Shown: positions 8,276-10,938, counted from the first letter of the stretch. The stretch is 64,000 nt of DNA from an uncultured Ohtaekwangia sp. (GCA_964436055.1 CAYTBO010000003.1:537-64536); one strand, 5' to 3'. Notes: generated from the sequence alone by a model not told the origin. Numbers and translations are program-made.

Positions 8276-9520
8276 TTGAGTCAAAAAGTGGAACCTTATA
8301 AAATTACTTTTCCAGTTGAGCAACGCGTTCCTATCCTGCTGAGCGTGCCTCATTGTGGGGTGGCTTTTCCTGATGAATTAAAAGATCAATATGACGAGGG
8401 CATGATAGCGAGCCCTGATGATACGGACTGGCATGTAGATCAACTTTACGACTTTGCTTCGTCAATGGGTATTACAATGATCAGTGCGGTATACAGTCGG
8501 TGGGTTATTGATTTGAATCGTGATCCTCAAAGCAAACCATTGTATACTGACGGGAGAATAATTACAGCATTGTGTCCGACAACTGATTTTTTTGGCAATC
8601 CCATTTATAAAGACAAAAGGAAGGAGACTGCAAATAATGATGTCGCTCTCAGGCTGGAATTATATTATTACCCTTATCACAAAAAAATACAAGAATTGCT
8701 GGATGACCTGAAGCTGGAATTCGGAAAGGTAGTGCTGTGGGATTGTCACTCCATCCGGCAGTTTGTGCCTACAATCAACAAAGAAAAATTTCCCGATTTG
8801 ATTCTCGGGGATGCTGATGGGACATCCGCTTCTCCAGGCTTAATTGAGGTAGCCTTGAAAGGATTAGAGTCGGGTATGTATCAGCTTTCACATAATCATC
8901 CCTTTAAAGGAGGATATATTACTCGCCACTTTGGCAAACCCATCGATGAACAACACGCATTGCAATTGGAAATGAGTAAGGTGATGTACATGGATGATGC
9001 AGAGACAAATTATGATGAGGAAAGAGTTTCAGGAATAAGAATAATATTGAAGACAACATTTGAAGGATTGGCGGAAGTGTTGAGTCCCTCACCCCCTCCC
9101 CTCTCCCGAGGGAGAGGGGTGTCCGAAGGACGGGGTGAGAAACCTAATACATGGAGCCAAAACAAAATTCCTGACACTATATTATTTCATTCCAGAGAAA
9201 TGAGGAAAAATTCCACCGAAGCAGAAAATCTACTTTGGGCAAACCTTAGGAACAGGAAACTAGGAGGATTTAAGTTTCGGAGACAACAACACATGGAGGG
9301 ATTTATTCTGGACTTTTATTGCCATGAATCAAGATTGGGAGTAGAGGTGGATGGGGAAATTCATAATAAGAAAGAGCAAAAGGAGTATGATGAACAAAGA
9401 ACGAAATACCTTGAAGAGTTAGGAATCGAGATAATAAGATTTAAAAATGATGATGTGATTCATAATATGCATTCAGTTTTGAATGAAATCCGTAAAACAT
9501 GCCAGAAAAGAGTTCACTAA
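8276..9520 (+). CDS. hutG: N-formylglutamate amidohydrolase fused in frame to a DUF559 (Vsr-like) endonuclease domain
   Basis: TTG start. SVPHCG, DTDWHVDQLY, SRWVIDLNR, WDCHS and NHPFKGGYIT, then linker SPSPPPLSRGRGVSEGRG, then STEAENLLW..LRNRKLGGFKFRRQ..FILDFYC..LGVEVDGEIH..RF.N. Confidence 0.9.
   Translation: MSQKVEPYKITFPVEQRVPILLSVPHCGVAFPDELKDQYDEGMIASPDDTDWHVDQLYDFASSMGITMISAVYSRWVIDLNRDPQSKPLYTDGRIITALCPTTDFFGNPIYKDKRKETANNDVALRLELYYYPYHKKIQELLDDLKLEFGKVVLWDCHSIRQFVPTINKEKFPDLILGDADGTSASPGLIEVALKGLESGMYQLSHNHPFKGGYITRHFGKPIDEQHALQLEMSKVMYMDDAETNYDEERVSGIRIILKTTFEGLAEVLSPSPPPLSRGRGVSEGRGEKPNTWSQNKIPDTILFHSREMRKNSTEAENLLWANLRNRKLGGFKFRRQQHMEGFILDFYCHESRLGVEVDGEIHNKKEQKEYDEQRTKYLEELGIEIIRFKNDDVIHNMHSVLNEIRKTCQKRVH
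9088..9139. repeat. GC-rich branched palindromic element inside the hutG-DUF559 junction
   Basis: Outer arms CTCACCCC (9088-9095) / GGGGTGAG (9132-9139) enclose hairpin CCCCTCTCCC-GA-GGGAGAGGGG (9098-9119) and hairpin GTCC-GAA-GGAC (9121-9131). Confidence 0.9.
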
Positions 9521-10938
9521 ATGCTTTATCGCCATATACCAAGAATACTCAATCCATTGTGGGCAAAGAACTAAAATACTTCAAATTCAAAGCACTTCTT
9601 CAGCGCCAATCATGGATGAGCCCTGCCTACGTTGGCATAGATGAGCATGGCAATATTTCTTATTTATCCAGTGATCCGCCTTCTGAAACTTTTGCTGTTG
9701 ATGCAGTCGATGGATATGCGCTTCCCGGATTTCAAAACGCACACTCACATGCTTTTCAGTATGCAATGGCGGGTCTTGCCGAGAATCATCCTTCTGGCAC
9801 GCATGATGATTTTTGGACCTGGCGCGAAGCCATGTACCAATGTGCCTTATCAGTGGATCCCGATCAGGCAGAGGCAATTGCTGCCATGTTGTATGCCGAA
9901 ATGCTTCGCCATGGATATACGCATGTAGCGGAATTTCACTACCTCCATCACGACAAAGAAGGAAAGCCTTATAGCCAGCTGGCAGAAATGGGTGAAAGAA
10001 TGGTGTCAGCGGCAAAAACAGCCGGCATTAGAATAACGCTGATTCCGGTTTTCTATCAAAAGGGCACATTTGGACAAGACCCTCAACCTCGGCAGCGAAG
10101 GTTTATTTCCAAAACAGTTGAAACCTATTTTCGATTATTGGAAGAATCAAAGAAGGTAATTAAAAATTATCAACATGCTTCAATAGGCTTTAGTGTGCAT
10201 TCGTTGCGCGCGGCCGACTTCAATGATATTAAGGAAATTCTTTCTCAAGGACCTCAGGTCCTTCCCTTTCACATGCACGTAGCAGAGCAGAGGAAAGAGG
10301 TGAGTGATTGTTTTGCATTTAGCGGCAAACGACCTATGCAATGGGTGTTGGAGAATTTACCGGTCAATGAAAGATTTCACCTTGTTCACTCCACACATTT
10401 GGATGATCAGGAATTGACCGGCCTGGCCAAATCAGGAGCTCGCGTTGTTTTGTGCCCATCCACAGAAGGAAATCTGGGTGATGGCATTTTTCGTATGAAA
10501 GAGTACATAAAAATGGGAGGCAGGTGGTCAATCGGCACCGACAGCCATATTGGTCTTAATCCGTTGGAGGAATTTAGAATGATTGACTACAGGCAACGAT
10601 TGATAACAAACGAAAGGAACACCTTTGAAGGCGATGCAGCCCATCAAATGATCAATGAAGAAATTCAATCGGGGCGCAAGGCGATGGGCATAGATTCCTC
10701 TGAAAATTTTGAAATCGGCCGTGGCTTTGATGCCGTTGTATTCAATGCTCAATTCCCCTTGCTCTCAACCACAAAGCTTGAGAACATACTATCCTCTATT
10801 GTATACTCTGCTGATGCTCATGCCCTGTTGGGCACTATGGTAAACGGAAGGTGGGTGGTGAAATTCAATACGCATAAGGAATCGGACAGGATCAGGCGAA
10901 ATTTTTTTACAGCACTTCAACAACTGAATAACCGGTAG
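9499..10938 (+). CDS. hutF: Formimidoylglutamate deiminase
   Basis: PGFQNAHSHAFQ, AEFHYLHH, HSLRA, HMHVAEQ..E, CPSTEGNLGDG and GTDSH motifs; adjacent to hutG. Confidence 0.93.
   Translation: MPEKSSLNALSPYTKNTQSIVGKELKYFKFKALLQRQSWMSPAYVGIDEHGNISYLSSDPPSETFAVDAVDGYALPGFQNAHSHAFQYAMAGLAENHPSGTHDDFWTWREAMYQCALSVDPDQAEAIAAMLYAEMLRHGYTHVAEFHYLHHDKEGKPYSQLAEMGERMVSAAKTAGIRITLIPVFYQKGTFGQDPQPRQRRFISKTVETYFRLLEESKKVIKNYQHASIGFSVHSLRAADFNDIKEILSQGPQVLPFHMHVAEQRKEVSDCFAFSGKRPMQWVLENLPVNERFHLVHSTHLDDQELTGLAKSGARVVLCPSTEGNLGDGIFRMKEYIKMGGRWSIGTDSHIGLNPLEEFRMIDYRQRLITNERNTFEGDAAHQMINEEIQSGRKAMGIDSSENFEIGRGFDAVVFNAQFPLLSTTKLENILSSIVYSADAHALLGTMVNGRWVVKFNTHKESDRIRRNFFTALQQLNNR

Follow-up and report, generated by a model that had tools for sequence, protein, structure and literature searches.

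The BoxC/PIT repeats of Escherichia coli have been known since 1992, BoxC having reportedly first been described by Bergler beside fabI, and the work of Hoyne and Maher from 2000 is said to rank among that on the BoxC/PIT/TMECO intrastrand-triplex repeats; to our knowledge, neither the function nor the origin of these repeats is known. Short palindromes can also lie in frame in protein genes, as the RPEs do, which are tolerated as extra peptide loops, but which occur only in Rickettsia, are not known to have a partner enzyme and are unrelated in sequence to the repeat described here. In REP/RAYT systems a single-copy gene, RAYT, is bracketed by a palindromic repeat that is dispersed in the genome. 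For E. coli the TMECO consensus is CCCTCNCCC N3-6 GGGNGAGGG N3 GGGNGAGGG; the repeats are highly conserved and widespread, can form an intrastrand triplex in vitro, are tied to local genomic variability and were reported to be always intergenic, whereby no mobility genes were found nearby and an endonuclease is never mentioned (Holder et al., 2015; PMC4666352). The EDxHD homing endonucleases, to which I-Bth0305I belongs, sit in group I introns, in inteins or between split inteins, and splicing restores the host product (PMC2677866, PMC3239194). In the window analysed here, a stretch of 64,000 nucleotides (nt) from an uncultured Ohtaekwangia sp. (GCA_964436055.1 CAYTBO010000003.1:537-64536), the metabolic gene hutG continues without a stop codon through a GC-rich palindrome into a gene for a DUF559 nuclease domain, which in turn overlaps hutF. 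We regard positions 9082-9573 as probably being a hairpin-capped DUF559 cassette, apparently selfish, which was inserted a single time into the tight, translationally coupled hutG|hutF junction, in an ancestor that only some members of the genus share.

One frame on the plus strand, 8276..9520, encodes 414 amino acids (aa) from a TTG and has no internal stop, whereas gene callers start at ATG 8288 and arrive at a 410-aa product. The HutG part closes with ...GLAEVL at 9081, and no stop codon follows. In the fusion product, residues 19-239 are covered by Pfam FGase (PF05013; E 2.3e-60), residues 17-264 by the TIGR02017 hutG profile and residues 305-409 by PF04480 (E 2.7e-34, 117.8 bits against a cut-off of 20.6), and the only families found in the Pfam scan are FGase, DUF559 and MTES_1575. 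The open reading frame (ORF) and these matches bear out an earlier note on this DNA, which had claimed that hutG runs stop-free via the palindrome into a complete DUF559 domain. An AlphaFold (AF2) model on 53 aligned sequences has two confident domains, joined by a linker (residues 274-297) with a predicted local distance difference test score (pLDDT) below 50. The HutG domain (pLDDT >90) is matched by Foldseek to the FGase structure 2q7s with a target-normalised TM-score (TMt) of 0.79-0.81. The DUF559 domain (pLDDT 80-97) is matched to 3hrl (TMt 0.93, root-mean-square deviation 1.6), which the DUF559 sequence also finds in the PDB (E 2e-20), and to 3r3p, the catalytic domain of I-Bth0305I (TMt 0.80, probability 1.00). 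The source genome comprises 3.5 Mb in 207 contigs and holds the palindrome and DUF559 in a single copy each. Three further contigs encode an identical 410-aa product (SRR3310977 by two assemblers; SRR3311162; a stromatolite metagenome); since these contigs come from two runs, the read-through is no artefact of one assembly, and the stop after hutG, which the earlier note had considered as possibly hidden by an assembly error, is absent from all of them.

The palindrome consists of an outer stem, CTCACCCC (9088-9095) with GGGGTGAG (9132-9139), which encloses a main 10-bp hairpin, CCCCTCTCCC (9098-9107) with GGGAGAGGGG (9110-9119) and the loop GA, and a small hairpin GTCC-GAA-GGAC at 9121-9131. 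The located arms and the fold agree with the translated three-way structure that had been claimed for it: folded as single strand or RNA it reaches -42.9 kcal/mol (z = -4.6), which was equalled by 0 of 200 shuffles, and the number of chance matches expected in the window is 0. Its in-frame translation is SPSPPPLSRGRGVSEGRG, and it is open, i.e., without a stop, in four of the six frames. Both orientations of the hairpin are found among the hut fusions, leading to peptides of the form PSPRP..TPLPGERGRGEG and PSPLPLSPGRGVSEGRGEG, respectively, and whichever strand is read, the PSP... frame of the hairpin caps is free of stop codons. A scan of 8800-9800 against Rfam (E <= 10) gave chance-level matches only; the best of them, with E 0.053 and 22 bits where the gathering score is 40, was to an unrelated family. 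A role as terminator could be ruled out, as a T-run is absent 3' of the palindrome; PIT elements had no terminator activity in earlier work cited by Holder et al. (PMC4666352).

Read on the minus strand, the element is CCCTCTCCC-TC-GGGAGAGGG-GAGG-GGGTGAGG, with 2 nt between the first two of its three blocks and 4 nt between the last two. These loops are each one base outside the published lengths of 3-6 and 3 nt, so that the strict TMECO pattern has no match in the genome; with a relaxed pattern (loops 2-7 and 2-6) the window element is the only match of the genome, and the control gave 0. When the 22-nt hairpin CCCCTCTCCCNNGGGAGAGGGG was searched exactly, with one genome per species, at least 120 loci were found in many phyla, a count which is a lower bound; Cyanobacteria, Proteobacteria, Planctomycetota, Chloroflexota, Bacteroidota and others are represented among the matches listed, where in 115 of 132 copies the hairpin is adjoined by the third block, either CTCACCCC itself or, at the opposite side, its complement. 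The three-block motif is the same in kind as that of BoxC/PIT/TMECO, and conservation in distant bacteria and local sequence variability are shared as well. Judged from these features, the window palindrome appears to belong to the BoxC/PIT/TMECO repeat class and is not new. However, it differs from the E. coli repeats in three respects besides the loops: in the window and its relatives the repeat lies inside ORFs and is translated, whereas the E. coli repeats are reported as intergenic; it has an extra arm and a small hairpin, which complete the full palindrome; and it caps a DUF559 gene. Thus, of the undescribed system that the earlier note had suspected, the palindrome class was already known, while the partnership of nuclease and repeat and the in-frame lifestyle appear to be undescribed. 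The sole other hairpin-like site of the source genome (contig C55:17792-17813, outside the window) reads CCCTTCTCCCTTGGGAGATGGG followed by ..GGGATGAGGG; it is a degenerate unit of the BoxC type, and no DUF559 gene lies close to it. In two metagenomic proteins, P0152 and P0153, three to four tandem translated hairpin copies (SPHPRPLSKVERGD...) precede DUF559, so that caps can also multiply in tandem.

The repeat and the nuclease gene go together far beyond the window. Of the 120 hairpin loci listed across phyla, 10 have a DUF559 gene at a distance of at most 200 bp, and elsewhere in the 868 kb of flanks there is none. Of 20 standalone DUF559 genes in the family, eight are bracketed by matching hairpins, and more are accompanied by a hairpin at one end. 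The hairpin is unique in the source genome, yet strongly enriched near DUF559 genes elsewhere, as these 10 of 120 loci and 8 of 20 genes show, which removes the doubt of the earlier note that it might be both unique and not enriched. Moreover, genomes of the genus contain 0-15 hairpins each (reversed-pattern control 0), with a mean of 2.6 in those with DUF559 and 0.29 in those without (Mann-Whitney p = 0.001, kinship ignored). In E. coli K-12, TMECO #9 lies ~170 bp downstream of the stop of ycjD, which is a DUF559 gene. At this place (NC_000913.3 1351200-1351830) YcjD itself ends with ..RRSPSP* in an imperfect CCCTCTCCC/GGGGG hairpin, ~40 nt of the ycjD 3' end are duplicated directly downstream, and TMECO #9 is located between ycjD and fabI.

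The nuclease domain itself is well preserved. The motif residues E22, D51, E62, D64, and H68 (numbered from fusion residue 296) are present, as had been claimed for the E, D, ExD and H motifs of a complete domain, and they are kept in 40-41 of 41 hut-locus homologs; 37 columns of the hut-locus DUF559 are conserved to at least 95%, catalytic-type residues included. The ratio of non-synonymous to synonymous substitutions (dN/dS) is 0.09-0.17 in the four pairs that were usable, because synonymous sites are saturated in most pairs, and DUF559 is under purifying selection. A cellular phenotype tied to cytosine methylation is known for VsrA, a DUF559 protein of Caulobacter (PMC12907096), and in one survey DUF559 proteins appear, without comment, among predicted targets of programmed inversion (PMC9881135). 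Programmed inversion was also considered here, but only flips of the hairpin orientation between species were seen.

The insert of the window occupies exactly the place at which relatives have a hutG/hutF junction of 0-34 bp, and at this junction the cassette can be followed through a series of states. Junctions were gathered from 55 genomes of the same genus and from metagenomic contigs, and hutG and hutF are both present in 49 of them. Of these junctions, 30 have nothing inserted (12-34 bp), 8 retain a solo palindrome or an identifiable half of one, and 11 contain the full DUF559 cassette. Empty sites therefore prevail, and the fusion is not a fixed feature, a possibility that the earlier note had held against a mobile cassette. 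The junction L053 carries a complete solo three-way palindrome that is missing from L052, a sister almost identical to it; the palindrome adds exactly 75 bp (25 codons), which are read in frame as SPSPRPSDTPLPGERGGGEGL within the N-terminal extension of HutF. In L007 and L008, the closest relatives of the hut genes of the window, the palindrome is reduced to its left arm and small hairpin, after which a stop follows. In L002 the nuclease gene is located between two full palindrome copies, and in L004 and L005 between one small and one large variant. Those three junctions and ~33 protein clusters of the type DUF559-linker-HutF, in which both parts are full-length, have a hairpin at the position of the spacer downstream of DUF559 (Table 1), where the window has none. 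Fusions of the type HutG-linker-DUF559, as in the window, make up seven clusters, and linker peptides are common to both types. Relatives of the family with an empty site start HutF with MKYF.F, 0-24 bp past the hutG stop and often overlapping it (ATGA). In the window, the site of this ancestral N-terminus, MKYFKF, at 9574 reads ..ELKYFKF and the ATG is lost; the hutF start codon lies instead inside the 3' coding end of DUF559, with an overlap of 22 nt.

Table 1. Features of the hutG-DUF559-hutF region, in positions of the window.
Feature	Position	Strand	Basis and remarks
hutG (N-formylglutamate amidohydrolase) part	8276..9081	+	PF05013, TIGR02017, AF2/Foldseek; alternative start ATG 8288
Three-way GC-rich palindrome, BoxC/PIT/TMECO-type, 52 bp	9088..9139	.	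Arms and hairpins located; translated linker SPSPPPLSRGRGVSEGRG
DUF559 (Vsr-like PD-(D/E)XK) module	9140..9520	+	PF04480; conserved N-terminal lead-in W..KIP..L..R.MRK; stop 9518-9520
hutF (formimidoylglutamate deiminase)	9499..10938	+	TIGR02022, E 1.4e-147
AT-rich spacer; second (downstream) palindrome of relatives decayed or lost	9521..9573	+	Now part of HutF N-terminal extension

Other small ORFs are found at the same place in some genomes. The junctions L054, L094, and L096 (genomes G178, G176, and G152, respectively) contain an ORF of ~260-310 bp for a membrane-anchored coiled-coil peptide (MKKLFYVGIAVLF...), and L087 (G174) an ORF of ~600 bp, so that the hutG|hutF junction seems to be a general landing place.

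The hut locus is not the only site of the cassette. A survey of the family covered 151 genomes, of which 96 contain DUF559, and yielded ~20 matches in long open frames. Between directly repeated translated hairpins, cassettes lie in frame in the genes for leucyl-tRNA synthetase (LeuRS, in two loops), isoleucyl-tRNA synthetase (IleRS) and MetH, there in the linker before the B12 domain, as well as in Eco57I-like and HsdR-like restriction genes. Each of the sites LeuRS-B and MetH is common to two genomes, and the respective nucleases pair in the tree (support 96 and 93). Within the genus of the window, one genome has a cassette in frame in IleRS, before FPADFIAEGVDQTRGWF (L250, G155:C16), and others carry theirs, likewise in frame, either in LeuRS, ahead of VFTTRPDT, or within an Eco57I-like methylase-nuclease (L249 and L251 in G180 and G186; L246 in G206). 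Solo palindromes are also read in frame: genome G001 has one in an 865-aa HrpB-like helicase (L010, ..HMLVPSPPSPLPGERGGPKGRGEGLPEDD..) and one in a 338-aa Ada/Ogt-like frame (L013, ..KIFPSPRPSDTPLPKERGRGEGRIHLL..). In the source genome the MetH site (C153) is empty, and no LeuRS gene was detected in the 97%-complete assembly when it was searched by tblastn with the LeuRS proteins that relatives encode, which is probably an assembly gap; the LeuRS of relatives often holds a repeat-flanked cassette, and the assembly may have broken there. Taken together, the hairpin-capped DUF559 gene is a recurrent unit that occupies specific sites in different genes, is read through in frame, decays to solo hairpins and scars, and is missing where close relatives have the corresponding site. 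The observation of the earlier note is thus confirmed and its interpretation supported. That note had proposed a small transposase-free cassette which lands at gene ends and is expressed as a passenger fusion: the passenger fusion holds true, as LeuRS, IleRS, MetH and the restriction-modification (RM) genes carry it in frame as well, but the limitation to gene ends does not, because internal sites are used too.

Concerning its history at the hut locus, the 41 DUF559 sequences found there form one clade (Shimodaira-Hasegawa-like approximate likelihood ratio test, SH-aLRT, 99), apart from copies at other sites, and the distances between them are correlated with the distances between the HutF sequences next to them (r = 0.75, Mantel p < 0.0005). 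As this correlation indicates that most of the locus history was vertical, the data point to a single insertion followed by mainly vertical descent. On the tree of HutG plus HutF the presence of the nuclease changes at least seven times, and at least six of these changes are forced by well-supported branches, so that loss must have been frequent, leaving hairpin scars behind; 24 of 61 genomes of the genus have no match to this DUF559 (E <= 1e-5). The hut cassette is accordingly an old resident of single origin that was lost repeatedly, rather than a recent arrival. For the mobile cassette of the earlier note this means that the patchy empty, solo and full states speak in its favor and the single, mostly vertical origin against its having come recently. 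One allele was evidently exchanged. L004 and L035 share 93-100% nucleotide identity in hutG and hutF, while identity falls to 57-87% from ~80 nt before the end of hutG up to the start of hutF, with saturated synonymous sites in DUF559. Hence, this mosaic indicates that the cassette allele was replaced via recombination with a diverged one, and such a swap is what homing with co-conversion would produce. In another pair, L002 and L075, the flanking palindromes are 92-97% identical, as against 63-93% for hutG, for hutF and for the greater part of DUF559, which argues that the hairpins are either strongly constrained in sequence or homogenised by conversion.

How such a cassette could live in coding sequence may be pictured as follows. 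The caps would be palindromes of C-runs and G-runs which the ribosome reads as a disordered Pro/Ser/Gly/Arg linker, and the nuclease would be made as a passenger domain on whichever neighbor keeps the frame, HutG here and HutF in most relatives, with hutF remaining coupled by a new ATG within the cassette. Since the caps are free of stops and the solo unit of L053 adds a multiple of three, reading in frame is possible; a frame that is kept also keeps the flow of ribosomes from hutG to the hutF start, which may explain why fusions to either neighbor exist. Cleavage by the predicted nuclease would then fall on the hairpin or the empty site, or close to one of them, and repair of the double-strand break would copy the nuclease gene between two hairpin copies, which would serve as homology arms or landing pads, so that the selfish cassette could persist like a homing endonuclease gene. 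Action of the nuclease at the hairpin or empty site, with copying by repair, would explain the layout, the site-specific lineages and the allele swap. That the cassette is moved by its own nuclease in this way is nevertheless a tentative proposal. Equally tentative is a wider one, in which DUF559 might be the missing partner enzyme of BoxC/PIT/TMECO and the two might constitute a pan-bacterial class of mobile element, whose minimal Vsr-fold nuclease acts on its own hairpin or triplex caps and homes into solo hairpins and which resides in genes without splicing, its caps being translated from either strand as flexible linkers.

Among described systems, the EDxHD homing endonucleases have the same catalytic fold as the nuclease of the cassette, represented by 3r3p, and like it they form lineages that are each tied to one site in a conserved gene, leave that site unoccupied in relatives, and are patchily distributed and subject to decay. 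The same hut site is full in 11 and empty in 30 junctions of the genus, sister pairs differ, and lineages are tied to sites with supports of 99 (hut), 96 (LeuRS-B) and 93 (MetH); as to horizontal spread into empty alleles with co-conversion of flanks, the cassette and ~80 nt of hutG were replaced in the one mosaic pair L004/L035, but this pair has a second mosaic patch elsewhere, and the DUF559-HutF distances are congruent overall. In contrast to these enzymes, the cassette has neither intron nor intein, remains in the protein and has hairpin caps, and cleavage by DUF559 is a prediction. Inteins are similar in being inserted in frame at conserved positions in essential genes, for instance those for aminoacyl-tRNA synthetases, and often carry an endonuclease. 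However, the Pfam scan of the fusion found no Hint or splicing domain, and the insert of ~150 aa consists of linker and DUF559 alone, so that it should stay in the mature protein. The size, the absence of splicing domains and the lack of ribozyme matches rule out both an intein and a group I intron. Unlike RAYT, a Y1 HUH transposase, DUF559 is a PD-(D/E)XK nuclease, and whereas REPs are extragenic and number in the hundreds, the hairpins described here are few per genome and often coding. Furthermore, features of a miniature inverted-repeat transposable element (MITE) or an insertion sequence (IS) are missing, as the Pfam scan found no transposase domain in the cassette and no clear target-site duplication is seen when L053 is compared with L052. 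In the literature searched, we found no paper that links DUF559 to palindromes or BoxC-type repeats or that describes an in-frame cassette of this kind.

Several observations weigh against a cassette spread by its own nuclease, the lack of a clear duplication in L052/L053 being one of them. We know of no nuclease activity, cut site or target-site duplication for the DUF559 cassette. The source genome has one hairpin and one DUF559, and no movement is visible now. Around 90% of the hairpins are solo (110 of the 120 listed loci), a few genomes carry hairpins without DUF559, and the nuclease could thus be a passenger of the repeat; in addition, the genome comparisons are phylogenetically non-independent. 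L004 and L035 have a second divergent patch at the hutF 3' end, so that ordinary recombination instead of homing may lie behind their swap, and a mostly vertical history would fit a domesticated gene equally well.

Such a domesticated gene, i.e., a Vsr-like repair nuclease kept for the host, with one hut insertion, an incidental fusion and hairpins that are merely recombination-prone BoxC neighbors, is an unlikely explanation. It would account for a gene that has stayed intact for long under purifying selection, is inherited largely vertically and exists in a single copy in the source genome, and the VsrA phenotype linked to cytosine methylation (PMC12907096) would suit it too. Against it stand at least six losses in one genus, with hairpin scars left behind, and 24 of 61 genus genomes in which no match to this DUF559 was found (E <= 1e-5); there is no functional tie to histidine catabolism, and the module is also found in LeuRS, IleRS, MetH and RM genes, always bracketed by the repeat. 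Somewhat less probable again is a process in which BoxC/PIT-type repeats would spread or cause rearrangements through a triplex or cruciform of their own, with DUF559 as a hitch-hiker that is captured or duplicated around and whose product plays no part. The many solo hairpins, the hairpin orientation flips between related cassettes and the TMECO repeats of E. coli, which are hot spots of local sequence change and near which no mobility genes were found (PMC4666352), are in line with it, but it leaves unexplained why the captured gene is always DUF559. Moreover, each of the 10 DUF559 genes in the 868 kb of flanks has a hairpin no more than 200 bp away, hairpin copy number tracks the presence of DUF559, and the nuclease is under selection and forms site-specific lineages. 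An artefact, i.e., a missed stop or frameshift, or two genes wrongly joined by an ORF finder, is conceivable in a draft metagenome assembly, as GC-rich palindromes are difficult sequencing targets, but is close to refuted by the identical ORF in three other assemblies of two runs, by six other diverged fusion clusters that keep the frame through differing hairpin variants and by ~33 clusters that hold it into hutF.

The nuclease family, the repeat family, homing endonucleases of the same fold and in-frame palindromes are each known, whereas the pairing of DUF559 with BoxC-type repeats and the in-frame cassette appear to be undescribed. To these, the window adds a case at a gene junction in which the cassette is fused to either neighbor, a single site at which one genus displays the complete range of states, and a documented allele replacement. 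The hut locus therefore offers a compact natural series of empty, solo, remnant, full and swapped sites, which is usable for dating and modeling the life cycle of the element. For annotation, the cassette accounts for many puzzling proteins in which DUF559 is joined to a metabolic enzyme, a tRNA synthetase or a methylase, and also for Pro/Ser/Gly-rich inserts in conserved proteins. It also represents a third way for a nuclease gene to reside inside essential genes, neither as intron nor as intein but as an extra domain flanked by linkers. For the BoxC/PIT repeats, a specific and testable partner protein, including YcjD in E. coli, would open the question of their function and origin to simple experiments.

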